A stretch of 64,000 nucleotides of DNA from Thermoanaerobaculia bacterium (GCA_035490435.1 DATHEF010000004.1:216044-280043), one strand, 5' to 3'. Positions 5,170-57,209 are shown, numbered from the stretch's first letter. The notes: generated from the letters alone by a model not told the origin. Program-made: numbers and translations.

Positions 5170-5215
5170 AACCCCTACCGAACCGCACTACACCGGGGCG
5201 AAAAGACCGGAGCGT

Positions 5216-5367
5216 CCGTGGCCTGCGACCTCATCCTCTGTCTCCTTCTCCTGAAGGAGAAGGAGGACGTATCTGGGCCGGCTCCTCTGCGCTTCGGCAA
5301 TGTCGCTTCAGACAGGTCCCTCCTCTCCTTCAGGAGAGGAGGACAGGAGGTGAGGTCGCAGGCCACG
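5216..5367. repeat. REP-like palindromic element (GGCCTGCGACCTCAyCCTC...CTCCTGAAGGAGArGGAGG family), two inverted half-copies
   Basis: The left arm cgtggcctgcgacctcatcctctgtctccttctcctgaaggagaaggagg pairs with the right arm ...cctcctctccttcaggagaggaggacaggaggtgaggtcgcaggccacg. A third half-copy lies at 54585..54632. Confidence 0.8.
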
Positions 5368-5439
5368 GATGCCACGATCTCGGCTGATACTCTCAGATCC
5401 CGGTTCCACCGTCGTCCGAGCGATAGGCAGCGCTGGCCC

Positions 5440-8196: not shown

Positions 8197-10263
8197 ATGC
8201 GCAAGCTGTTCATTTGTTTCGCGATGCTGACGGCGGCCCTCCCCGCGCTGGCGGCGGACCCGCATCCGTTCAACGTCCATGATCTGGTGACGATGCAGCG
8301 GATCTCGGACCCTCAGCCCTCGCCGCGGGGGGACCGGGTCGCCTTCGTCCTCCGCTCCACGGATCTCGACGCCAACCGGGGTCGCACCGATCTCTGGATC
8401 GTCAATGCCGACGGCGGCGGCCTCGCCCGGCTGACCACCGATCCGGCGTCGGACGACACCCCCCGCTGGGCGCCGGACGGCCAGAGCCTCTACTTCCTCT
8501 CCAGCCGCTCCAAGTCGAGCCAGGTCTGGAAGTTGCCGGTCGCTGGGGACACCGTGGGCGACCCCGTGCAGGTGACCCATCTCCCTCTCGACGTCGCGAA
8601 CCTCACCCTCTCGCCCGACGGCTCGCGGCTCGCCTTCAGTCTCGAGGTCTACGCCGACTGCCCGACGGTCGCCTGCACGAAAGAGCGGCTGGACCAGAAG
8701 GAGAAGGAGAAGTCCTCCGGCCAGCTCTTCCAGGGGGATGCCGGCTTCTTCCGCCACTGGGACGTCTGGTCCTCGGGGCTGCGCAACCATATTTTCACCC
8801 TGCCGGCCTCTGGCGAGGGCGATCCGGTCGACCTCTCGCGCGGCATGAACGCCGACGCCCCCTCGCGCCCCTTTGGCGGCTCCGAGGAGTTCACCTTCTC
8901 GCCCGACGGCCGCACGTTGGTCTTCACCGCCCGCCTCGGCGGCCGCGAGGAGCCGTGGTCGACCAACTTCGACCTCTACAGCGTGCCGGCGGACGGCTCG
9001 CAGGCGCCCCGGAACCTGACGCAGGCCAACCTCGCCTGGGACACCCAGCCGGTCTTCTCGCCGGACGGCAAGACCCTGGCCTACCTCGCAATGTCCCGCG
9101 CGGGCTTCGAGGCCGACCGCTTCCGCATCCGGCTGCGCGACCTCGCCACCGGCCGCGAGCGGGTGCTCGCGGAGGCCTGGGACCGCTCGCCGGCCGGGGT
9201 CTTCTTCTCGGCGGACGGCCGCACTCTCTATGCCTCGGCCGGTGACGTGGGGCAGACGCCGCTCTTCGCCATCGACGTCGCGACCGGCAAGGTGACCAAG
9301 CTGGTGTCCCAGGGGCACGTCCATGATCCGAAGCTCGCCGGCGACCGCATCGTCTACGGCCTCGATACCCTGATCTCGCCGGTGGAGCTGTACACGGTGG
9401 GGCGCGACGGCACGGGGGTGTCCCAGCTCACCCACGTCAACCAGGAGGCGCTCGCCGCCATCCGCATGGGGGAGCCGGAGCAGTTCTCCTTCAAGGGGGC
9501 CAACGGCGATACGGTCTGGGGGTGGGTGACCAAGCCGGTCGGCTTCCAGGCGGGCAGGAAGTACCCGCTGGCCTTCCTCATCCACGGCGGCCCCCAGGGA
9601 TCGTTCAGCAACGAGTTCCACTACCGCTGGAACCCGCAGCCCTACGCGGGGGCGGGGTACGCGGTGATCACCATCGACTTCCACGGCTCGACCGGCTACG
9701 GCCAGGCGTTCACCGACGCCATCACCCGGGACTGGGGGGGCAAGCCGCTGGTCGACCTTCAGAAGGGGCTCGCCGCCGCCCTCCAGCGCTACCCCTGGAT
9801 CGACGGCACGCGGGCGTGCGCTCTCGGCGCCTCCTACGGCGGCTTCATGATCAACTGGATCCAGGGCAACTGGCCCAACGCCTTCAAGTGCCTGGTCGAC
9901 CATGACGGCACCTTCGATCAGCGGATGATGTATTACGGCACCGAGGAGCTCTGGTTCCCGGAGTGGGAGATGGGCGGCACCTACTGGCAGCACCCGCAGC
10001 TCTACGAGAAGAACAACCCGGTGAATTTCGTCGACCGCTGGAAGACCCCGATGCTGGTCGTCCACAGCGCCCTCGACTACCGCATCCCGGTCACCCAGGG
10101 GATCGCCGCCTTCAACGTCCTCCAGCGCAAGGGGATCGCCAGCCAGTTCCTCTACTTTCCCGACGAGAACCACTGGATCCTCAAGCCGGCCAACAGCATC
10201 CTCTGGCACGACACCGTGCTGACCTGGCTCGACCGCTGGCTGGGGCCCGGGGGAAGCAAGTAA
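8197..10263 (+). CDS. S9 family serine peptidase (prolyl oligopeptidase / acylaminoacyl-peptidase-like) with N-terminal TolB-like beta-propeller
   Basis: Signal peptide MRKLFICFAMLTAALPALA; propeller repeats (SPDG...); GASYGGFM nucleophile elbow (GxSxGG); D and H of the catalytic triad lie in the C-terminal alpha/beta hydrolase fold. Confidence 0.85.
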   Translation: MRKLFICFAMLTAALPALAADPHPFNVHDLVTMQRISDPQPSPRGDRVAFVLRSTDLDANRGRTDLWIVNADGGGLARLTTDPASDDTPRWAPDGQSLYFLSSRSKSSQVWKLPVAGDTVGDPVQVTHLPLDVANLTLSPDGSRLAFSLEVYADCPTVACTKERLDQKEKEKSSGQLFQGDAGFFRHWDVWSSGLRNHIFTLPASGEGDPVDLSRGMNADAPSRPFGGSEEFTFSPDGRTLVFTARLGGREEPWSTNFDLYSVPADGSQAPRNLTQANLAWDTQPVFSPDGKTLAYLAMSRAGFEADRFRIRLRDLATGRERVLAEAWDRSPAGVFFSADGRTLYASAGDVGQTPLFAIDVATGKVTKLVSQGHVHDPKLAGDRIVYGLDTLISPVELYTVGRDGTGVSQLTHVNQEALAAIRMGEPEQFSFKGANGDTVWGWVTKPVGFQAGRKYPLAFLIHGGPQGSFSNEFHYRWNPQPYAGAGYAVITIDFHGSTGYGQAFTDAITRDWGGKPLVDLQKGLAAALQRYPWIDGTRACALGASYGGFMINWIQGNWPNAFKCLVDHDGTFDQRMMYYGTEELWFPEWEMGGTYWQHPQLYEKNNPVNFVDRWKTPMLVVHSALDYRIPVTQGIAAFNVLQRKGIASQFLYFPDENHWILKPANSILWHDTVLTWLDRWLGPGGSK

Positions 10264-10289
10264 ACGATTTTTTGTTCCTTTTGAGCTCT

Positions 10290-10336
10290 GAGGGCGGCCC
10301 GCGGGCCGCCCTCAACGTTTGCAGGTTTTTTTGTTG
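10290..10336 (+). terminator. putative rho-independent terminator of the S9 peptidase gene
   Basis: GC hairpin gagggcggcccgcgggccgccctc followed by a T-rich run (gtttgcaggtttttttgttg). Confidence 0.5.
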
Positions 10337-10525
10337 AGCATTGGGGATAGTGATCCGCAAACCCCCGAAAAACGGGCTCTCGAAAAAAAGTTCGGGATTT
10401 TTGTCCCGGAAAACCCCTCAGCGGAAACGAAGGTATTAGAGGCGATATGAACAGCCGTCCCGTTCACTCGACGTGCAGGGGAGGGTCGACCCATCGCCGG
10501 CTTCACCGAAGGAGGAGGATGAGCC

Positions 10526-45809: not shown

Positions 45810-47666
45810 TTGAATCCCTCCCTCGTCGCCCTCACCGGCCCGCTGCAAGGGCAGACATTCGAGCTGCGCGGCGGCGAGCTCGCTCTCGGCCGCCACCCCT
45901 CGAACGATCTGCGGCTGCCCGATCCGTCGGTCTCCCGCCATCACTGCGTCCTGCGCCGCACCGCCGAGGGGTGGCGGATCGTGGACCTGGAGAGCAGCCG
46001 CGGCACCTTCGTCAACGGCCTGCCGGTGCGGGAACGGGAGCTCGCCCACGGCGACTTTCTGGCGATCGGGGATTCCACCTTCCTGGTCTCGCTGCGGGAC
46101 GCCCGGGCCGGAACGCCCGAGCCGGCGGGGGACCTGGAGGATTCCGGCCTCGCCGGAGAGACCGAGATCCGCCTCGCCGTCACCGATTCCATCTACCTGC
46201 GGCGGGACCGGCTGCCGGCGGCGCTCGCCGGCCTGCTCGAGATCGCCGCCGCGCCGCCGGGCGGCTCCGCGGCCCTGGGAACCCATCTCTTGGAACGCGT
46301 TCTCGCGGCGGTGCCGGCGGAGCGGGCCGCGCTCCTGCCGGTAGAGGAGGATGGCGAGGGGCTGGCGCCGATCCACCGTTCGCCGGCCGGGGATCGCCCC
46401 TTCGCCGTCAGCCGGACGATCGTGGCCCGGGTTCTTGCCGGGCGCGAGGCGCTGCTGATCGATCGCGGGCGCGGCGACGAGGCTTCCGGCAGCGTCGCCT
46501 CCGCCGGCGTCCGCTCGCTCGCCTGCGTGCCGCTCCCGGGGCTGGCCGGCATTCTCTACGCCGACACTCTGACCTCTGGAGCGCATCTGGACGAGGAGCA
46601 CCTCCAGTGGCTGGCGGCGGCGGCCGCCCTCGCTTCCGGCCCGCTGGCCGCCGCCCTCCGCGCCGAGCGGCTGGAACGGGAGAACCAGCGCCTTCAGGCC
46701 GCCGAGCTGGGGCACGGGCTGGTGGGGGAGAGCCCCGGCCTGCGCCGGATCTACGGCGTGATCACGCGCGTGGCGCCGACGCCGTCGACCCTGCTGATCC
46801 TCGGCGAGAGCGGCACCGGCAAAGAGCTGGCGGCCCGCGCCCTCCACGGCGCCAGCCGGCGGGCGGGGAAGCCGTTCATCGCCATCAATTGCGCGACGCT
46901 CTCGGAGACCCTGCTCGAAAGCGAGCTCTTCGGCCACGAGCGGGGAGCCTTCACCGGTGCCGTGGAGCGCAAGACCGGCAAGCTGGAGGTCGCCGACGGC
47001 GGCACCCTCTTCCTCGACGAGGTGGGGGAGATGCCGCCCGCCCTCCAGGCGAGGCTCCTGCGCGTGCTCCAGGAGCGCACCTTCGAGCGGCTGGGGAGCA
47101 CGAAGCCGATCCGCGTGGACATCCGCCTGGTCGCCGCGACCAACCGCGACCTCCTGAAGGCGATCTCCGAGGGGAGCTTCCGGGCCGACCTCTATTACCG
47201 GCTGAACGTGGTCTCGATCACCATGCCCCCCCTGCGCGAGCGCCGGGAGGACATCCCGCTGCTGGCGAGCCACTTCGCGGCGCTGCACGGCCGGGACATC
47301 CGCGGACGCGAGGCGGGGATCTCGCCCGAGGCCCGGGCCCTGCTCCTTCGCTACGACTGGCCGGGCAACGTGCGCGAGCTGGGCAACGCCATCGAGCGCG
47401 CGGTCGTGCTCGGTATGGACGACACGATCCGCCCCGAGGATCTGCCGGAGACCCTCCTCGAGACCGCCCCCGCTGGCGGCGCGGGTGCGGCCACGACGAC
47501 CCAGTACCACGACGCGCTGAACGGCCTGAAGCGCCGGTTGATCGTCGAGGCGGTCCGCGACAGCGGCGGCACGATCACCCGGGCGGCCGAGCGCCTGGGA
47601 CTCCACCCCAATCATCTCCACCGGCTGATCACGACCCTCGGGCTCCGCGACGAGATCGAGGGGTGA
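45810..47666 (+). CDS. sigma-54-dependent transcriptional activator (FHA - GAF - AAA+ sigma54 interaction - Fis HTH)
   Basis: FHA ([22 protein letters not shown]...[10 protein letters not shown]); GESGTGKE Walker A; GAFTGA motif; C-terminal HTH. TTG start per the ORF track. Confidence 0.85.
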
Positions 47667-48530: not shown

Positions 48531-48748
48531 TCGCCCGCAGGGCGGAATTTATCCAGCCTGGGGTGTTAACCCCAGGTAGGCGGCCCACCCACGTCCCCAA
48601 GCCCGCAGGGCCGGCAGAAACCTCCGTCGCTGAGGCCGCGCCGGTCCAAATTCAAATGATCTGCCGGCCCCTTCGGGGACTTGGGATTTGTGGGGCCTCG
48701 TACCTGGGGTTGACACCCCAGGCTGGATAAATTCCGCCCTGCGGGCGG
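48531..48748. mobile_element. MITE-like element with about 47-bp terminal inverted repeats and nested inner inverted repeats
   Basis: Left gcccgcagggcggaatttatccagcctggggtgttaaccccaggt; right acctggggttgacaccccaggctggataaattccgccctgcgggc (1 mismatch). Inner gccggcaga...tctgccggc and ccccaagcccgcaggg / ccccttcggggacttggg pairings. Lies between convergent genes. Confidence 0.65.
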
Positions 48749-49854: not shown

Positions 49855-49987
49855 CGGATCCTCCTTGTCCGAGATACGCCTCCCGAGAGCCGGAAAGGCA
49901 TCTTCACTCAGAGTGTGCGGCCGGATGAAATCATTTCGCCCGGAAGCGCACAACTGGAATGGAAGAGATCCGTATAGAATCCACCCG

Positions 49988-50986
49988 ATGCCCATCGATA
50001 CGAGGACGCTCCTCAAGAAGAGCATCGCCAAAGCCATCCAATCCCCGGGCAACCTGGTGACGGGCGCGGTGAGCCTTGCCGCCTCGGCCGTGCTGTGGAA
50101 TCCGCTGCCGCTGATCCTTTGGGGTCTCGGCGCCACCGGCTGGGTGGCTCTCGCCGGGACGGGGCAGCGCTACATCCACCAGATCGAGGAAGAGGAGCGG
50201 CGCGACGCCGATCTCAAGGCGGAGAAGGACCGCGAGATCCTGCGCCAGAAGGTGGAGGCGAGCCTCGCCGAGAACCCGATCAACAACTGGATGCGCGCCG
50301 GCCTGCTGCCGGACTACATGTCCGTCTACCGGCGGCTGGCCGAGATCCGCGGCCGGGTAGGAAAGGTCCTCGCCGACCGCACCGATCTCGACGCCCTGAG
50401 CAAGGCGGGCATCGTCCAGCAGCTCGGCTACATGCTGACCGCCTACCTCAACTTCGTGCGCGAGCGGGTCGCCTATCTGCAGATCCTCGCCACCATTCGC
50501 CCCGGATCGGACACTCCGACCCTGCAGGCGGCACCCGCCGGGCCGAGCATCCCGGTGGTCGACAAGCGACGGGGCATCCAGGTCCAGATCCAGCCCGCGC
50601 GCCCCCTGGCGCCGGCCTCGCCGCTGCCGAGCGTGGAGAAGCGGCTGGCCGAGGTGGACGCCAAGGTGAAGCAGCTCGAGGAGCTGGCGCAGAAGGAGCC
50701 GGCCACCGCCCGCACCCGCCAGTTCCATATTGGCATCCTGCAGAAGCAGCGCGACCTGCTGCTCGAGTGCCAGAAGCGCGACCAGTGCGTGGATGCGCAA
50801 CTGGGTGCTTTTTCCGATGTCTTCGAAGTCATCCTGGGCCGGGTCAGCGCGTCGCAGTTCAGCGCGACCGAGGTCGCCAGCTACATGGGCACGGTGGTGG
50901 AGCAGGTCGTGGAAACCGAGCGGTTCGTCGACTCGCTGCGGCCCGCCATGGACGAGCTCATCGTAGGGCTGGGGAGTCCCGGCTGA
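49988..50986 (+). CDS. hypothetical membrane-associated coiled-coil protein, paralog 1 of 2
   Basis: Roughly 45-50% identical to the 54840..55865 product over the full length (shared N-terminal hydrophobic hairpin, EEERR coiled coil, ...EPATARTR(Q/E)FHIGIL(Q/E)KQR(D/E)LLL(E/D)C(Q/H)KRDQCV... C-terminus). Start trimmed to MPIDTRTLLKK to match the paralog's MPFLKKRTLLRR. Confidence 0.6.
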   Translation: MPIDTRTLLKKSIAKAIQSPGNLVTGAVSLAASAVLWNPLPLILWGLGATGWVALAGTGQRYIHQIEEEERRDADLKAEKDREILRQKVEASLAENPINNWMRAGLLPDYMSVYRRLAEIRGRVGKVLADRTDLDALSKAGIVQQLGYMLTAYLNFVRERVAYLQILATIRPGSDTPTLQAAPAGPSIPVVDKRRGIQVQIQPARPLAPASPLPSVEKRLAEVDAKVKQLEELAQKEPATARTRQFHIGILQKQRDLLLECQKRDQCVDAQLGAFSDVFEVILGRVSASQFSATEVASYMGTVVEQVVETERFVDSLRPAMDELIVGLGSPG

Positions 50987-51041
50987 GCCGCCGGCAAGTT
51001 GCGAGAACGTTTCGACCTGAAGGTCGAGAGGAGATAAGACA

Positions 51042-52685
51042 ATGAAGCTCACCCCCATGGGGAAGGCAATCGTCGTGTTGGCCCTGCTGGTCGCTGCGTT
51101 TTTCGCGGTCCGCCGGTTCGTCCCGGGTCTCAAGACCTGGGCCATCGGGGGGGACAAGAATGGCACGGCCGCCGCGCCCGGCAACGAGACCGTCGGCAAG
51201 AACGATTTCGACGCCCTGGGCAACGCCCCGGCCGATCCGGAGCGCGGCAAGGGCTCCGAGGGGGTCTCCCCGGCGAGCAACCTCGGCGGCAGCGGCAAGC
51301 TCGACCGCCCGCTGGTGGTGGCCATCAACACCTGGGCCGGCCACTCGCCCGGCATCGTTTTCAACAACGGCATGGATCCCAATTCCGGCTCGCAGTTCAG
51401 GAAGAAGTACGGGATGGACGTCAAGTTCGTCCTCTTCGAGGACCCGGCGACCAAGCTCGCGGCCTTCCGCAAGGGGGACGTCGACATCATGTGGGACACG
51501 GTCGACAACTGGGCCCGCGAGGCCTCGATCCTCGCCGAGCAGAACCAGAAGGCCAAGTCGATCATCATGCAGGACTGGTCGCGCGGCGGTGACGGCATCG
51601 TCTCGCTCGCCTCGATCAAGTCGATCGAGGAGCTGAAGGGGCACAAGATCGCCTGCACCCAGTTCACCCCCTCGCACTTCCTGCTCCTCTACCTGCTCGC
51701 CCAGTCCGGCCTCTCTCCGGCGGACCGCGCGTCCGTAGAGCAGGGGATCATCTTCACCCAGGACGCCCCGGCCGCCGCGGCCGCCTTCAAGGCCCGGCAG
51801 GTCGACGCCGCCGTGACCTGGGAGCCGGACCTCTCGGCCGCCGTCGAGGCGCGCGGCGCCGAGGCCCACGTCCTGGTCTCGACCGCCGCGGCGACCAACA
51901 TCATCGCCGACACCCTGGTCGCCCGGCAGGATCTGATCGACCGCGCCCCGGACACCGTGCGCGATTTCGTCCACGGCTGGCTCGAGGGGATCGAGGCGAT
52001 CAAGAACGACCCTCAGGGTTCCTACGCCATCGTCGGCAAGGCGCTGAAGCTCGACGCCGACACCATCTCCGGCATGCTCTCGGGGCTGAAGCTCACCCCC
52101 TACGCCGACAATGCCCAGTTCTACGGCCTGACCGGCGGCAAGGCGCACTTCGAGGCCCTGTTCGACACCGCCTTCATCATCTGGCGCAAGAAGGGGCTGG
52201 TGACCCGGCCGGTCGAGGCCAAGGACTGGGCGGACTCCCGCTTCCTGCAGGCGCTGGCCGCCGACTACCCCGGGCAGCAGGTCGAGGAGCCCAAGATCGC
52301 CGCCAAGGCGCCGTCAGAGAAGGACCGGGCGATCATCAACAAGCAGATCCAGATCCACTTCACCCCGGGCTCCGACGAGATCATGGCCGGCTCCTACATC
52401 GTCCTCGACGCCCTGGGGGAGACCATGACCTCCTTCGGCAACACCTACCTGCGGGTCGAGGGGAACACCGACGCGACCGGCTCGCAGAACGCCAACCTGA
52501 CGCTCTCCGAGAAGCGGGCCCTGGCGGTGAAGAACTACATCCTGCAGAGCTTCCCCAACATCCAGTCCGCCCGTTTCCAGACCATCGGCCACGGCGCGAC
52601 CAACCCGGTGGCCGACAACACCACGGAAGCCGGGCGGCAGTTGAACCGCCGGACGGATATCAAGGTGGTTCTGGCGACGCAGTAG
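51042..52685 (+). CDS. NitT/TauT-family ABC substrate-binding protein (NMT1/SsuA-like) fused to a C-terminal OmpA/MotB-like domain
   Basis: N-terminal TM/signal anchor; SsuA/NMT1-like binding domain; C-terminal ...EGNTDATGSQNANLTLSEKRALAVKNYI...NRRTDIKV is an OmpA_C-like peptidoglycan-binding signature. Confidence 0.7.
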   Translation: MKLTPMGKAIVVLALLVAAFFAVRRFVPGLKTWAIGGDKNGTAAAPGNETVGKNDFDALGNAPADPERGKGSEGVSPASNLGGSGKLDRPLVVAINTWAGHSPGIVFNNGMDPNSGSQFRKKYGMDVKFVLFEDPATKLAAFRKGDVDIMWDTVDNWAREASILAEQNQKAKSIIMQDWSRGGDGIVSLASIKSIEELKGHKIACTQFTPSHFLLLYLLAQSGLSPADRASVEQGIIFTQDAPAAAAAFKARQVDAAVTWEPDLSAAVEARGAEAHVLVSTAAATNIIADTLVARQDLIDRAPDTVRDFVHGWLEGIEAIKNDPQGSYAIVGKALKLDADTISGMLSGLKLTPYADNAQFYGLTGGKAHFEALFDTAFIIWRKKGLVTRPVEAKDWADSRFLQALAADYPGQQVEEPKIAAKAPSEKDRAIINKQIQIHFTPGSDEIMAGSYIVLDALGETMTSFGNTYLRVEGNTDATGSQNANLTLSEKRALAVKNYILQSFPNIQSARFQTIGHGATNPVADNTTEAGRQLNRRTDIKVVLATQ

Positions 52686-52736
52686 GATTTCGCAGGGACG
52701 AGGCTTGTTTCAATATCGTCCCCAAGGCGTTCTTTA

Positions 52737-52816
52737 CGTAGGGGAGGGGCTTGTCCCCTCCCGGGTGGGGGCCGGGCCGGCCTGCGCAGAGGGCGGGGAC
52801 AAGCCCCGCCCCTACG
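52737..52816. repeat. REP-like imperfect palindrome (aggggaggggcttgtcccc ... ggggacaagccccgcccct)
   Basis: About 19-bp arms separated by about 40 bp of GC-rich spacer, in the intergenic gap before the permease gene. Confidence 0.6.
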
Positions 52817-52852
52817 TTCCCTCCGCCAGCCTGAAAACGCACAAGGACCAAT

Positions 52853-53653
52853 ATGGCACGCAAGAAATCCAACTTCTTCGCCCTGCGCCAGCCGCTGCCG
52901 CGCTCGACCTCGACGGCGCTGGGGCTGCTCGCCCCGATCCTCCTGGCCGGCGCCTGGTGCCTGCTGACCTATGGCGGCTTCGTGACGCCCGACTTCCTCC
53001 CGTCTCCGACCGAGGTCTTGCGGGGCACCCTGCAGCTCTTCCTCCAGTACAACCTCTGGGAAGCGATCGGGATCTCCAGCCGGCGCATCTTCCTCGGCTT
53101 TCTCCTGGCTTCGGCGGTGGCGCTGCCGCTGGGCGTGCTGATGGGCGCGTTCGAGCCGATCAATCGCTTCTTCGAGCCGATCGTGGCGCCTCTGCGCTAC
53201 ATGCCGATCTCGGGCTTCATCGGCATCCTCATCCTCTGGTTCGGGATCTACGAGAAGCAGAAGGTGGCCTTCCTCTTCCTGGGAGTCTTCGTCTACCTGC
53301 TGCCGGTCGTGGTCACGGCCATCCGGCTGGTGCCCGAGGAGCTGGTGCAGACCTCGATGACCTTGGGCGCTTCCCGCTGGCAGGTGATCCGCACTGTCCT
53401 GCTGCCGGCGGCCCTGCCCGAGATCTTCGACTCCTTCCGGGTGATGAACGCCATCTCCTGGACGTACATCATCCTCGCCGAGCTGGTCAATCCGGGGGGC
53501 GGGCTTGGCTACATCATCGAGCTCGGACGCACCCACCAGAAAGCCTCCTGGCTGTTCGCCGGCCTGCTGGTGATCGGCGGCATCGGGCTCCTCACCGACT
53601 TCGTCATTCGTATCATCAGCTCGCTGCTCTTCCGCTGGAGGGAAACGGTATGA
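52853..53653 (+). CDS. ABC transporter permease, NitT/TauT family (BPD_transp_1)
   Basis: 266 aa, 6 TM; EAA-like loop region (...ASRWQVIRTVLLPAALPEI...). Confidence 0.8.
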   Translation: MARKKSNFFALRQPLPRSTSTALGLLAPILLAGAWCLLTYGGFVTPDFLPSPTEVLRGTLQLFLQYNLWEAIGISSRRIFLGFLLASAVALPLGVLMGAFEPINRFFEPIVAPLRYMPISGFIGILILWFGIYEKQKVAFLFLGVFVYLLPVVVTAIRLVPEELVQTSMTLGASRWQVIRTVLLPAALPEIFDSFRVMNAISWTYIILAELVNPGGGLGYIIELGRTHQKASWLFAGLLVIGGIGLLTDFVIRIISSLLFRWRETV

Positions 53654-54567
53654 GCGATCCTGAAAGCCCGCTGCCTCTGCCCACCGCGGGCGAACCGGGA
53701 ACGGTCGCCATCACCGTCCCGGGCAAGGGGGAGCCGCAGGCCCCCTCCTACCGCCACGAGCCGGAAACGGCGATGCCCAAGCTGCGGGTGTCGAACCTCC
53801 ACATCACCTACATCGACCGCACGGGGCGGGCGACCGAGGCGGTGCGGGACGTCTCCTTCGACATCGCCGACAAGCCCGGGACGGGGGAGATCGTCGTCTT
53901 CCTTGGCCCCTCGGGCTGCGGCAAGTCGACGATCCTGAAGTCGATCGCGGGCCTGCTCACGCCCACCAAGGGGGAGATCCTGATGGAGGGCAAGCCGGTC
54001 GAGGACGTCGGCCGCGACCGCGGCATGGTGTTCCAGACCTATACCTCCTTCGGCTGGCTCACCGTGCGGAAGAACCTGGAGTATGGCCTGCGTCTCCAGG
54101 GGGTGCCCAAGGAGAAGCGCCGTGCGCTCTCGGACAAGTACCTCCAGTCCGTCGGGCTGGCGGAGTTCGCCGACCGCTACCCCAAGGACCTCTCCGGCGG
54201 CATGAAGCAGCGGGTGGCGATCGCCCGCACGCTGATCAACCAGCCCAAGATCGTGCTCATGGACGAGCCCTTCGGAGCGCTCGACCCGCAGACCCGCTGG
54301 GGGATGCAGAGCCTCCTGCTCGACGTCTCGCGCACCGAGGACAACACCATCCTCTTCGTCACCCACGACGTCTCCGAGGCGGTCTACCTGGCCGACACGG
54401 TGTACGTCCTCTCCTCCCGCCCCGCGCGCATCCTGCACAAGGTGAACGTGCCCTCCTTCCCGGTGCGCGACGTGGCGCTCAAGTCGGCGACCGAGTTCCG
54501 CGCGGTGGAGAAGCAGTTGCTGGACCTGCTGTATGCGCCATCGGCGGAGGGGAAGGGGAAAGGATAG
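53650..54567 (+). CDS. ABC transporter ATP-binding protein, NitT/TauT family
   Basis: GPSGCGKST Walker A, LSGGMKQRVAIARTL signature, VLMDEPFGALD Walker B; ATGA overlap with the permease stop. Confidence 0.85.
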   Translation: MSDPESPLPLPTAGEPGTVAITVPGKGEPQAPSYRHEPETAMPKLRVSNLHITYIDRTGRATEAVRDVSFDIADKPGTGEIVVFLGPSGCGKSTILKSIAGLLTPTKGEILMEGKPVEDVGRDRGMVFQTYTSFGWLTVRKNLEYGLRLQGVPKEKRRALSDKYLQSVGLAEFADRYPKDLSGGMKQRVAIARTLINQPKIVLMDEPFGALDPQTRWGMQSLLLDVSRTEDNTILFVTHDVSEAVYLADTVYVLSSRPARILHKVNVPSFPVRDVALKSATEFRAVEKQLLDLLYAPSAEGKGKG

Positions 54568-54584
54568 GGGACGTCCGCGGCCTG

Positions 54585-54632
54585 CGACCTCACCCTCGGT
54601 CCCTCTCCTGAAGGAGAGGGAGGGCCTGTCAG
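54585..54632. repeat. REP-like element, third copy of the GGCCTGCGACCTCAcCCTC...CTCCTGAAGGAGAGGGAGG family
   Basis: Same core as 5216..5367. Confidence 0.7.
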
Positions 54633-54839
54633 AACCGGTGATGCCCGTAGGGTGTGCTGTCCTTTTCCTCCCCCCGTTCCGGGTGGAGGAAAAAATTCGG
54701 GCGTCCGGGATGATCCCCACACTTCCTCAGGACGAGATTCAATCCAGGTCCGCCCCAAGCGCGCTACAATCAACTTGGCCAAGATCTTGCTGCACGTTGT
54801 CCCCCGAAACGTGCCGGCCGGATCGAGCGCGAAGCCACC

Positions 54840-55865
54840 ATGCCTTTCCTGAAAAAAAGAACCCTGCTCCGGCGGAGCATCGCCAAGGCGCTCCAGACCC
54901 CCCTCAACTTCGTGGCCGGCGCGGCCGGCGTCGGGGCCACATGGTGGCTCCACGATCCCACCTGGGCGATCGTCTGGGGGGCGGGGGCCGCCGGCTGGGT
55001 GGTGATCGCCACCACCACGCAGCGCTACCGGCCGCGCATCCAGGAAGAGGAGCGCCGGCGGCGGGAGCTGAAGGAGGAGAGGGACCGCGAGGCCCTGCGG
55101 CTGCGGACGCAGCGGATGCTCGACGAGACCCCCTTCGATCTCTGGATCCACGCGGGCTATCTGCCGGATTACATGGCGGTCTTCGCCCGTCTGCTCGAGA
55201 TCCGCAACCGGGTCTCGCGGGTGCTGGCCGAGCGGCGCGACCTCGACGCCTTCACCAAAGAGGACATCCTCCAGCAGCTCAGCACCATGCTGACCGCCTA
55301 CCTGGGCTTCGTGCGCGAGCGGGTCTCCTACCTGCACATCCTGGCGAGCGTGCTGCCGGTGCCGGCCCCGCCCGCCGCTTCGAACTCGCTGCCGGGATGG
55401 CGGCGGGACTGGCGCCGGCTTTCGGCGCGTATCGCGCCCGCCTTCGTGCCGCCGCTGCCGAGCCTGGAGAAGCGCCTCGCCGAGGTGGGGGAGAAGATCC
55501 GCCAGATCCGCGAGCTGTCCGCCCGCGAGCCGGCGACCGCCCGCACCCGCGAGTTCCACATCGGCATCCTGGAGAAGCAGCGCGAGCTGCTGCTGGACTG
55601 CCACAAGCGCGACCAGTGCGTCGTCGCCCAGCTCGGAGCCTTCTCCGACGCCTTCGAAGTCATCCACGGCCGCCTCAGCGCCTCGCAGTTCAACGCCACC
55701 GAGGTCGCCAGCTACATGAGCAGCCTCGTCGAGCAGATCGTGGAGACCGAGCGCTTCGTGGAAACCCTGCGCCCCTCGATCGACGGGTTGATGGTGGGGA
55801 TGGATCCCGGGGTGGCGGCGCGGGTGCCGGGGGCGGGACCGGTACGGCAGGGCGGGCGGGGGTAG
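54840..55865 (+). CDS. hypothetical membrane-associated coiled-coil protein, paralog 2 of 2
   Basis: See 49988..50986; the two paralogs bracket the ABC importer operon. Confidence 0.6.
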   Translation: MPFLKKRTLLRRSIAKALQTPLNFVAGAAGVGATWWLHDPTWAIVWGAGAAGWVVIATTTQRYRPRIQEEERRRRELKEERDREALRLRTQRMLDETPFDLWIHAGYLPDYMAVFARLLEIRNRVSRVLAERRDLDAFTKEDILQQLSTMLTAYLGFVRERVSYLHILASVLPVPAPPAASNSLPGWRRDWRRLSARIAPAFVPPLPSLEKRLAEVGEKIRQIRELSAREPATARTREFHIGILEKQRELLLDCHKRDQCVVAQLGAFSDAFEVIHGRLSASQFNATEVASYMSSLVEQIVETERFVETLRPSIDGLMVGMDPGVAARVPGAGPVRQGGRG

Positions 55866-56213: not shown

Positions 56214-57209
56214 CTAGACGAGAGAGTACGCCTCCCGCCCGAACCAGGCAATGTACGAGTACGGGATCGTGCCGTAGCCCGTGCCGTGGTGCGAGGCGTT
56301 TCCCCAGTTGGGCCAACTGTTGCGGATCAGGAAGCGGCCACCCCCCAGGCCCGGATCCGCCGAGTCCTGGTAGCCGATCATGGTCATGGCATGACCGCCG
56401 ACGACCGTCTCCCCCGGGATGGGATTGATGATGTCGCCGGTGCTCGCGACCACCGGGTTGAGGTACCAGGAATTGAAGACCGGAATGGAGAAGGCGACGC
56501 AACTGCCTCCGGCGAGCTCGCGCTGGATGTCGACGACCGAGGTCGGCGGCAGCGCGTTGGAGGCGGTGATCCTGCGCGTCGCGGCATCCGCCTGGGCTCC
56601 CGCCGGCGGCGGCGCCTGCGCCTCGTTACCCGGAATGATGTTCGGGCTGTAGAGCCAGAGGGGGTCCTGGCAGCAGCCGTCGCTCTGGAGGACGCGGAAG
56701 GCGACGCCCACATAGGTGCCGGGAAGCGTGGGGATGCCGTCGTTCTGTTTGCAGTTCCAGTAGAGGAACTGTTCGGACATGTCCTGGAAGCTGCCCGTGC
56801 TCATCCCGCGCTGCTCGACGACGGCGAGCGAGGCGAAGGCAACGCAGGTCGACCTCTGCCCCTGGTCGCGGGGGGGCGGCAACTGTGCGAAGAGATCGAC
56901 CGACGAGGGAAGGGGCGGCGCGGCGGCGGCCATGGCGGCGACCGACGGCAGGGCGAAGGCGAACTGCGGCGCTGGAATGAGGTCGAGCGCCACCCCGAGC
57001 GGATGGGGAGTAGGCGCCTCGGCCTCGAGGCTCGACGGCAGCAGGTTCGCGAGGAGCTCGGTGATATTGGCGCCGAGGAAGCGCGACAGGTCGTCTCCGG
57101 CCGCCTGCGCGACTCCGAGCACCTGTTCCTTGGTCTGAAAGCCGAGCGCCATGAGAGCTGCCTCGTGCGGCTTGAGCTCCGGGATCTGGTCGAGGGATTC
57201 ATTGGCCAT
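56214..57209 (-). CDS. papain-like cysteine peptidase, family C1 (clan CA), cytoplasmic, with about 130-aa N-terminal HhH-like extension
   Basis: Q-x5-C-VAF (RDQGQRSTCVAFAS; compare papain QGSCGSCWAFS), GGHAMTMIGY His block, NSWPNWG...GTGYG Asn/Trp block; no signal peptide. Confidence 0.75.
   Translation of the reverse strand: MANESLDQIPELKPHEAALMALGFQTKEQVLGVAQAAGDDLSRFLGANITELLANLLPSSLEAEAPTPHPLGVALDLIPAPQFAFALPSVAAMAAAAPPLPSSVDLFAQLPPPRDQGQRSTCVAFASLAVVEQRGMSTGSFQDMSEQFLYWNCKQNDGIPTLPGTYVGVAFRVLQSDGCCQDPLWLYSPNIIPGNEAQAPPPAGAQADAATRRITASNALPPTSVVDIQRELAGGSCVAFSIPVFNSWYLNPVVASTGDIINPIPGETVVGGHAMTMIGYQDSADPGLGGGRFLIRNSWPNWGNASHHGTGYGTIPYSYIAWFGREAYSLV

Follow-up and report, generated by a model that had tools for sequence, protein, structure and literature searches.

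A conserved four-gene locus links an OmpA-fused NitT/TauT-type ABC importer to a family of helical hairpin proteins in Thermoanaerobaculia and more distant bacteria

A 64,000-nucleotide stretch of DNA from a Thermoanaerobaculia bacterium (GCA_035490435.1, DATHEF010000004.1:216044-280043; hereafter the window, G+C ~68%), whose nearest relatives are soil metagenome-assembled genomes of the Thermoanaerobaculia (Acidobacteriota), contains genes for an ATP-binding cassette (ABC) importer lying between two genes for paralogous proteins of unfamiliar type. An earlier note on this DNA described the interval 49988-55865 as a NitT/TauT-type importer with an OmpA-domain-fused binding protein, bracketed by two coiled-coil membrane proteins of a family that it did not recognise. 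The layout, orientation and coordinates of the five genes are as described there, and the genes, all on the + strand, fill the interval; we refer to the paralogs as parA and parB and to their family as PAR. The question that the locus raises is whether this is a plain importer with chance neighbours or a larger system of which a PAR protein is part. With somewhat more confidence than doubt we favour the latter, a four-component envelope system, and our confidence in any particular physiological role is lower than in the four components themselves. The genes are:

49988-50986, + strand: parA, an open reading frame (ORF) for a PAR-family protein of 332 aa
51042-52685, + strand: substrate-binding protein with an OmpA domain (SBP-OmpA), 547 aa, identified with Pfam and NCBIfam
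52853-53653, + strand: ABC permease, 266 aa, TauC/SsuC/NrtB-like, type I importer fold
53650-54567, + strand: ABC ATPase, TauB-like, 305 aa, with an N-terminal extension of ~45 residues
54840-55865, + strand: parB, encoding the second PAR-family paralog, 341 aa, a putative separate transcription unit

The conserved unit is four genes and not the two-paralog bracket that the earlier note described. Over ~150 related loci the recurring arrangement is one PAR gene together with the genes for an OmpA-fused binding protein, a permease and an ATPase, and it is found in Thermoanaerobaculia/Holophagales, in Candidatus Uhrbacteria and on unbinned contigs. A PAR query recovers 74 loci (individual loci are given below as L numbers), and mapping of the window proteins onto these shows that every full-length PAR gene of the parA clade, or more distant, adjoins one of two paralogous cassettes. 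The type 1 cassette, which is that of the window, has the order PAR, SBP-OmpA, permease, ATPase, and the type 2 cassette consists of a 262-aa permease, a 275-aa ATPase, PAR, and a ~600-aa binding protein with a C-terminal OmpA domain and the same N-terminal helix as in type 1. The binding proteins of the two types share 27% aa identity over their full length (E 8e-32), the permeases 25% and the ATPases 38%. Four gene orders are represented among the PAR-cassette loci, and the four genes are kept together where PAR identity to parA is as low as 26-35% (L075, L076, L159, L160, and L158 in Candidatus Uhrbacteria). The converse scan used only the type 2 binding protein as its seed; of the 80 metagenome loci in it, ~45 have enough flanking sequence to be informative, and a match to the PAR hidden Markov model (HMM) is adjacent in 38 of these. 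The link between PAR and the cassette is far stronger than chance adjacency. Neighbours of type 1 and type 2 are intermixed within the parA clade of the PAR tree (L002 and L003, for example, are sisters), indicating that the cassette has been exchanged while PAR stays downstream of the same DCC1-like or TPM genes.

Assignment of the three central genes to an importer of the NitT/TauT type stands. The permease matches BPD_transp_1 (E 8e-18, 65.3 bits against a cut-off of 26.4) and the NCBIfam models SaoP (8e-35), TauC (1e-33), SsuC (1e-24) and NrtB (4e-18); the ATPase matches ABC_tran (E 3e-33), TauB (2.6e-63) and NtrCD (2e-55); and the binding protein matches Pfam NMT1 (E 5e-12, 46.5 bits, cut-off 20.5) and SsuA_fam (4e-25). 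On these profiles all three are predicted members of the NitT/TauT importer family. None of the transporter proteins reaches an NCBIfam equivalog cut-off, and no substrate is therefore assigned. The binding protein also matches the SsuA and TauA sequences of the PDB (E ~7e-7), and a Foldseek search with its model (of low confidence, pLDDT 64) finds TauA 6ssy as the nearest structure (E 2e-12), together with SsuA 2x26 and ThiY; these neighbours define the fold class only, which is predicted to be sulfonate/taurine-like.

The binding protein has three recognizable segments:

51042-51131, + strand: putative uncleaved N-terminal membrane anchor (residues 1-30)
51408-52016, + strand: core of the TauA/SsuA-like NMT1 domain (residues 123-325)
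52359-52649, + strand: OmpA-like peptidoglycan-binding domain (residues 440-536)

The fusion to OmpA is genuine, and the profile searches that might have failed to find it give a match to PF00691 over residues 440-536 (E 2.2e-17, 63.6 bits, cut-off 27.2) and to solved OmpA-like domains with E values down to 7e-16. The segment EGNTDATGSQNANLTLSEKRA contains the TD...RA motif, of which D477 and R492 are invariant in 50 homologues and align with the motif in 5wtp and 5u1h. In solved OmpA-like complexes the Asp and Arg of this motif contact the peptide stem, and a domain with these motif residues is a predicted peptidoglycan binder. At the other end of the protein the N-terminal hydrophobic helix has no lipobox and no obvious cleavage site. 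Some loci have additional binding-protein genes. In L003/L004/L005 (14572-16323) a type 2 binding-protein gene follows PAR, SBP-OmpA, permease and ATPase, and in L039, L040 and L042 (~9025-10400) there is an extra binding protein of ~455 residues that apparently has no OmpA domain. The presence of both kinds of binding protein round one transporter suggests that two binding proteins share one translocator.

The two paralogs are full-length relatives of one another (59% identity, E 9e-120) and share the features noted earlier, namely an N-terminal hydrophobic hairpin, an EEERR helix and the FHIGIL...KRDQCV block. An AlphaFold2 model of parA, built with 36 sequences, is all-helical (pLDDT 88, pTM 0.80), with a short amphipathic N-terminal helix followed by a predicted hairpin of two hydrophobic helices (residues 20-58) and then by a strongly charged helix and a bundle of helices; residues 168-215 form a disordered linker, beyond which lies a conserved helical block at the C-terminus. 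Conservation within the family is highest in the hairpin, which is rich in small residues (Gly/Ala/Ser) and whose helices are joined by a nearly invariant NPLP turn. The family comprises 432 clusters at 90% identity, with the named ones nearly all from Thermoanaerobaculia, and 80 clusters at 50%, and a profile search adds further remote members; the distant ones lie in bins labelled Candidatus Uhrbacteria, Patescibacteria or just 'bacterium'. One profile search for homologous proteins returned mostly the same close relatives again. Neither parA, parB nor 36 diverse relatives match any model in Pfam, NCBIfam, PADLOC or PHROGs; no PDB family match was found for PAR, and a profile run against all PDB sequences finds generic coiled coils only. 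JGI names for PAR members include 'plasmid stabilization system protein ParE', 'MarR family transcriptional regulator' and 'YebE', all of which look like annotation errors. We considered and rejected two further assignments: a LemA-like protein, an idea that came from the TPM neighbour, as there is no match to the LemA Pfam model and the architecture differs, and a defence system, since the PADLOC matches are to the OmpA domain only, as ZorB/MotB.

An indication of a specific partnership comes from residues 1-30 of the binding protein (MKLTPLGKxIIVVALLVAAFFSVRRFAPGL), which are 76% identical between type 1 and type 2 binding proteins, whereas identity is 17% in the linker, 22% in the binding domain and 31% in the OmpA domain. 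A version of this segment, LTPxGK...FF..R.F.P, persists in the loci with 26-35% PAR identity and in other gene orders, so local recombination does not explain its conservation. Because cleaved signal peptides are not conserved in this way, the simplest reading of the segment is a transmembrane helix that is retained and has a specific partner. The permeases of the two types are very different while PAR is shared and interchangeable, and we therefore suggest that the partner of the anchor helix is the PAR hairpin.

A simpler view of the locus is that it encodes an ordinary importer for a sulfonate, taurine or similar compound, with a binding protein that is incidentally tethered to the wall and with neighbouring PAR genes that serve some other membrane function or have a dispensable role in regulation. 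All three transporter parts are indeed standard for the NitT/TauT type, with TauA and SsuA as the nearest structures, and in L001 the cluster lies ~2 kb from genes for sulfite reductase, phosphoadenosine phosphosulfate (PAPS) reductase and CysG. NCBI already has a generic name for such fusions ('ABC transporter substrate-binding/OmpA family protein'; nothing specific on binding proteins fused to OmpA came up in literature searches), and parB can live apart from any transporter. However, the sulfur-gene neighbourhood is not conserved, the window being among the loci that lack it, whereas the adjacency of PAR and the cassette survives across phyla to the lowest PAR identities, in all four gene orders and with both cassette types. 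The binding protein is also exceptionally conserved (~87% identical where PAR is ~75%), with the anchor helix under unusual constraint. We consider an ordinary importer unlikely for these reasons.

In ~20 more distant loci the four genes are extended, with a gene for an AAA+ protein 3' of PAR in 20. The full order is X, PspA/IM30 (Pfam 1e-16), OmpA-fused binding protein, permease, ATPase, PAR and AAA+ (~590 residues), and at least 15 loci contain all seven genes. The PAR proteins of the L076/L097 type match the family of the window (phmmer E 5e-45 for P0139, and HMM matches). An operon of this composition has been reported by Ravi et al. 2024 (mSystems, PMC11237479) as PspA, PBPB+OmpA, permease, ABC ATPase, TM+Snf7 (a transmembrane segment with Snf7) and AAA+, in one sentence and one table row that give neither a family definition nor an experiment. 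The protein in the PAR slot is labelled there as a membrane-anchored divergent Snf7, with OGG56892.1 of Candidatus Handelsmanbacteria as an example, and a link between membrane remodelling and solute transport is suggested. PAR corresponds to this 'divergent Snf7' by operon position and not by sequence comparison with OGG56892.1. The family, which the earlier note did not recognise, indeed has no Pfam or NCBIfam model, but given this published label it is not wholly unrecognised. As to whether the paralogs belong to a family unrelated to transport, which the note named as a refutation, the evidence divides: the label in the literature is one of membrane remodelling, and linkage to a transporter is the strongest fact about the family.

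Two small X families, with proteins of ~215-250 residues in which a coiled coil comes after a low-complexity N-terminus, have no Pfam match and are encoded directly 5' of the PspA or binding-protein gene in distant loci (L075 2461-3126, L076 350-997 and L158 3642-4382; L097 3880-4563 and L055 5303-6490); they are the counterparts of the 'X(s)' in Ravi et al.

Divergent from parA is a gene of a type that also appears among the PspA partners listed in PMC11237479:

48799-49854, - strand: TPM-domain membrane protein with a low-complexity tail (Pfam TPM_phosphatase 2e-26)

TPM matches lie directly upstream of the module in ~17 loci, with both cassette types, and the gene is a recurrent neighbour rather than a core part. 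Its frequency speaks for a second alternative, that of Ravi et al., in which PAR is a hairpin-anchored polymerising protein of the ESCRT-III/Snf7 type with membrane remodelling and repair as its primary role, PspA and AAA+ are encoded elsewhere in the genome, and the ABC cassette has an accessory part, as supplier or sensor of a solute. In hhalign alignments of PAR with ESCRT-III and with PspA there is a single local match each, which falls in both cases on the same PAR helix (290-318), opposite the ESCRT-III segment 'IDKVDExMDEI', and is not significant. Genes for sigma-54 activators lie nearby in the window (45810-47666) and in L160, and the classical psp operon is sigma-54 dependent. Homology of PAR to Snf7 nevertheless could not be confirmed. 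The Snf7 and PspA_IM30 Pfam models give no match to the remote PAR members scanned at E<=10, and in the scan of 36 members they are absent from the 25 families listed out of 75; searches with the PAR profile against the PDB give no support, and Foldseek returns nothing at E<0.8 and no ESCRT-III chain among its fold matches. The hhalign probability is 0.4% for PAR against the PspA proteins of related loci and 0.5% against four ESCRT-III sequences, a comparison that lacks power since the control of PspA against ESCRT-III reaches just 1.8%. PspA and AAA+ are moreover absent from the window and from all loci of the parA clade. We have not filed PAR as an ESCRT-III member, and primary membrane remodelling seems to us about as improbable as the ordinary importer.

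Returning to the four-component envelope system that we favour, the permease and ATPase would form an ABC importer of the NitT/TauT type whose binding protein is held at both ends, by its uncleaved helix in the inner membrane and by its OmpA-like domain on the peptidoglycan, such that the TauA/SsuA-like ligand domain would hang between the membrane anchor and the wall anchor. PAR would be a fourth subunit or a dedicated regulator. Its predicted hairpin would sit in the inner membrane and most likely pack onto the anchor helix of the binding protein, and its helical domain would lie below the membrane and could touch the ATPase or serve as a scaffold. Such a module could couple solute uptake to the state of the membrane or wall, and given that PspA and a double AAA+ ATPase are added in fuller versions its role is probably in envelope or membrane homeostasis rather than in nutrient scavenging. 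The window would then carry a stripped-down form, with parB as an older, independently transcribed spare paralog.

Several observations weigh against this interpretation. PAR is undetected beside the cassette in ~6-7 of the informative loci seeded with the binding protein (among them L122, L132, L135, L143 and L155), and L117 has a weak PAR match only. The hydrophobicity of the PAR hairpin is moderate (Kyte-Doolittle 15-residue maximum ~1.7), which makes full membrane insertion uncertain, and conservation of the anchor could partly reflect contact with the permease rather than with PAR. A tblastn search of the 64-kb window with L097 and L055 queries finds none of PspA, AAA+ and X, and the reading in terms of envelope stress is thus carried over from distant relatives.

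A more elaborate form of the proposal is that the doubly tethered binding protein and PAR together constitute a mechanical or occupancy sensor of the gap between membrane and wall. The binding of a ligand, or altered turgor or width of the periplasm, would be transmitted through the anchor helix to the PAR hairpin, and PAR would switch an ESCRT-III-like scaffold under the membrane and the ABC ATPase on or off. We regard this whole chain as a long shot, less probable than either alternative above; if true, it would represent an undescribed coupling of wall state to membrane repair, from Acidobacteriota to Patescibacteria.

What then is the status of the second paralog? The parB clade is separate from, and sister to, the parA clade in the PAR tree, and each has orthologues in many genomes; the split is old, as judged from the sequences. 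A second paralog beside the cassette occurs only in close relatives of the window, and stand-alone copies of parB are present in at least nine other genomes with unrelated neighbours (e.g. Rce1-like, EcsC, DUF5996, DoxX and kinase genes), among which no conserved neighbours or partners were found. The bracket is a lineage-specific arrangement, not a design principle. The gap that separates parB from the ATPase gene is a hot spot of variation, in which relatives that are collinear elsewhere have inserts of 1.4-4 kb (L008 12608-14859, L017 12540-14596, L047 4709-6162 and L011 7343-11495). In the window this gap contains one of two elements resembling repetitive extragenic palindromic (REP) sequences:

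54572-54637, unstranded: dispersed REP-like repeat, with inverted repeats and the hairpin TCCCTCTCCT/AGGAGAGGGA
52736-52816, unstranded: long REP-like hairpin, palindromic, within the 167 bp from the binding-protein gene to the permease gene, with arms GGAGGGGACAAGCCCCTCCCCTACG and GGCGGGGACAAGCCCCGCCCCTACG

The first is the REP-like element that the earlier note saw after the ATPase gene and took as a sign of duplication. It is a real repeat, with three copies in the window where none is expected by chance (the others at 5213-5266, +, and 5304-5369, -), and relatives have it in other intergenic sites, one of which is the gap from the binding-protein gene to the permease gene, where it forms an inverted pair. 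We reject a recent REP-mediated tandem duplication, as the repeat is dispersed and intergenic and the paralogs are 59% identical and fall in separate clades. Taken as a whole, the interpretation that the note offered is partly supported.

The second element has a strong predicted RNA fold (-94 kcal/mol, z -5.6). The REP hairpin between malE and malF in the E. coli maltose operon raises expression of the binding protein relative to the membrane parts, and by analogy the hairpin at 52736-52816 may do the same here. The two are alike in that a strong palindromic repeat lies between binding-protein and permease genes, but the repeat sequence in the window is unrelated, and in relatives the other REP type fills the gap.

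As judged from their spacing, parA and the three transporter genes probably form one transcript: the gap between parA and the binding-protein gene is 55 bp, and the start of the ATPase gene overlaps the permease stop as ATGA, both of which fit one operon. Putative promoter signals are present upstream of both paralogs:

49975-49981, + strand: -10-like box TAGAATC, 6 nt 5' of the parA ATG
54759-54794, + strand: parB upstream signals, CGCGCTACAATC (-10-like) and then TGGCC-N7-TTGCTG

In 19 orthologous parA upstream regions the TAGAAT core is invariant and GTAGAATCC nearly so. TAGAATC/TACAATC boxes precede other ORF starts in the window as well (35932, 42207, 54765 and 58897, like that at 49975 all +), for which reason we read the box as a local -10 element, and two of the five lie 6-9 nt before an ATG (42223, 9 nt; 49988, 6 nt). 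This suggests that they are the -10 element of the organism and that leaderless mRNAs are frequent, and from its predicted promoter the parA transcript would be leaderless or nearly so. A scan with the sigma-70 consensus found no two-hexamer promoter. The parB signals are conserved in 14-16 of 17 parB orthologues, stand-alone copies included, with a variable spacer; they could be either a -10 box with an element in the 5' untranslated region or a GG-N10-GC sigma-54 promoter. Counts of the sigma-54 pattern in the window are not above chance, and only the cross-species alignment carries weight. The gene at 45810-47666 (+), 2.3 kb upstream of the module, encodes a sigma-54 enhancer-binding protein whose N-terminal domains are FHA and GAF-like and is kept at this place only in the closest relative, L008; a different, divergent sigma-54 activator gene is beside the cassette in L160. 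The relevance of these activators to the GG-N10-GC motif 5' of parB is suggestive only.

Two other features lie close to the module. A gene for a papain-family (C1) cysteine peptidase (56214-57209, -) is just 3' of parB, and no link to the module is seen. The gap from the DCC1-like gene to the end of the TPM gene contains two matches, in inverted orientation, to the Acido-Lenti-1 RNA motif of Rfam (48531-48576, -, and 48703-48748, +; 29.3 and 33.3 bits, E 1.7e-3 and 1.4e-4), both of which fall short of the gathering score (37).

The PAR family is sizeable and has no model in the databases. Its one robust property is linkage to an unusual ABC importer, and this linkage provides an annotation rule for several hundred proteins that are 'hypothetical' or mis-named. 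If PAR is a subunit or regulator, the module would be a rare instance of a type I importer that has a fourth membrane component of its own; if PAR is ESCRT-III-like, solute transport would be tied to bacterial membrane remodelling, a connection so far proposed from gene neighbourhoods only. The published seven-gene operon is reduced here to a four-gene core that extends across phyla, and a concrete candidate contact is indicated, that of the anchor helix with the PAR hairpin.

The association has been noted before, briefly and computationally, in phage-shock/ESCRT-like operons, and is uncharacterised. The window differs from the operon of Ravi et al. in lacking PspA, AAA+ and X, in having two PAR paralogs, and in that its binding domain is recognizably NMT1/TauA-like (type 1), with 27% identity to the common type. 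It resembles that operon in its OmpA-fused binding protein with an N-terminal signal or transmembrane segment, its permease and ATPase, and its helical protein with a transmembrane anchor, and distant relatives of the PAR protein of the window occur in the exact published seven-gene order. Compared with TauABC and SsuABC of E. coli, the permease and ATPase are of the same type and the fold of the binding domain is nearest to TauA (6ssy) and SsuA (2x26), but identity is ~20% and equivalog scores are all under the cut-offs; TauA and SsuA are soluble proteins of the periplasm that have neither a membrane anchor nor an OmpA domain, and their transporters have no fourth membrane component. Unlike in MotB, Pal and YiaD, the spacer of the binding protein in the window consists of an entire solute-binding domain, no acidic residue is conserved in the anchor, and there is no partner of the MotA/ExbB/TolQ type. 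The OmpA domain nonetheless shares the TD...RA motif with these proteins and, as in MotB, follows an N-terminal helix, here a putative inner-membrane one, an order of segments by which the binding protein would bridge the membrane and the wall.

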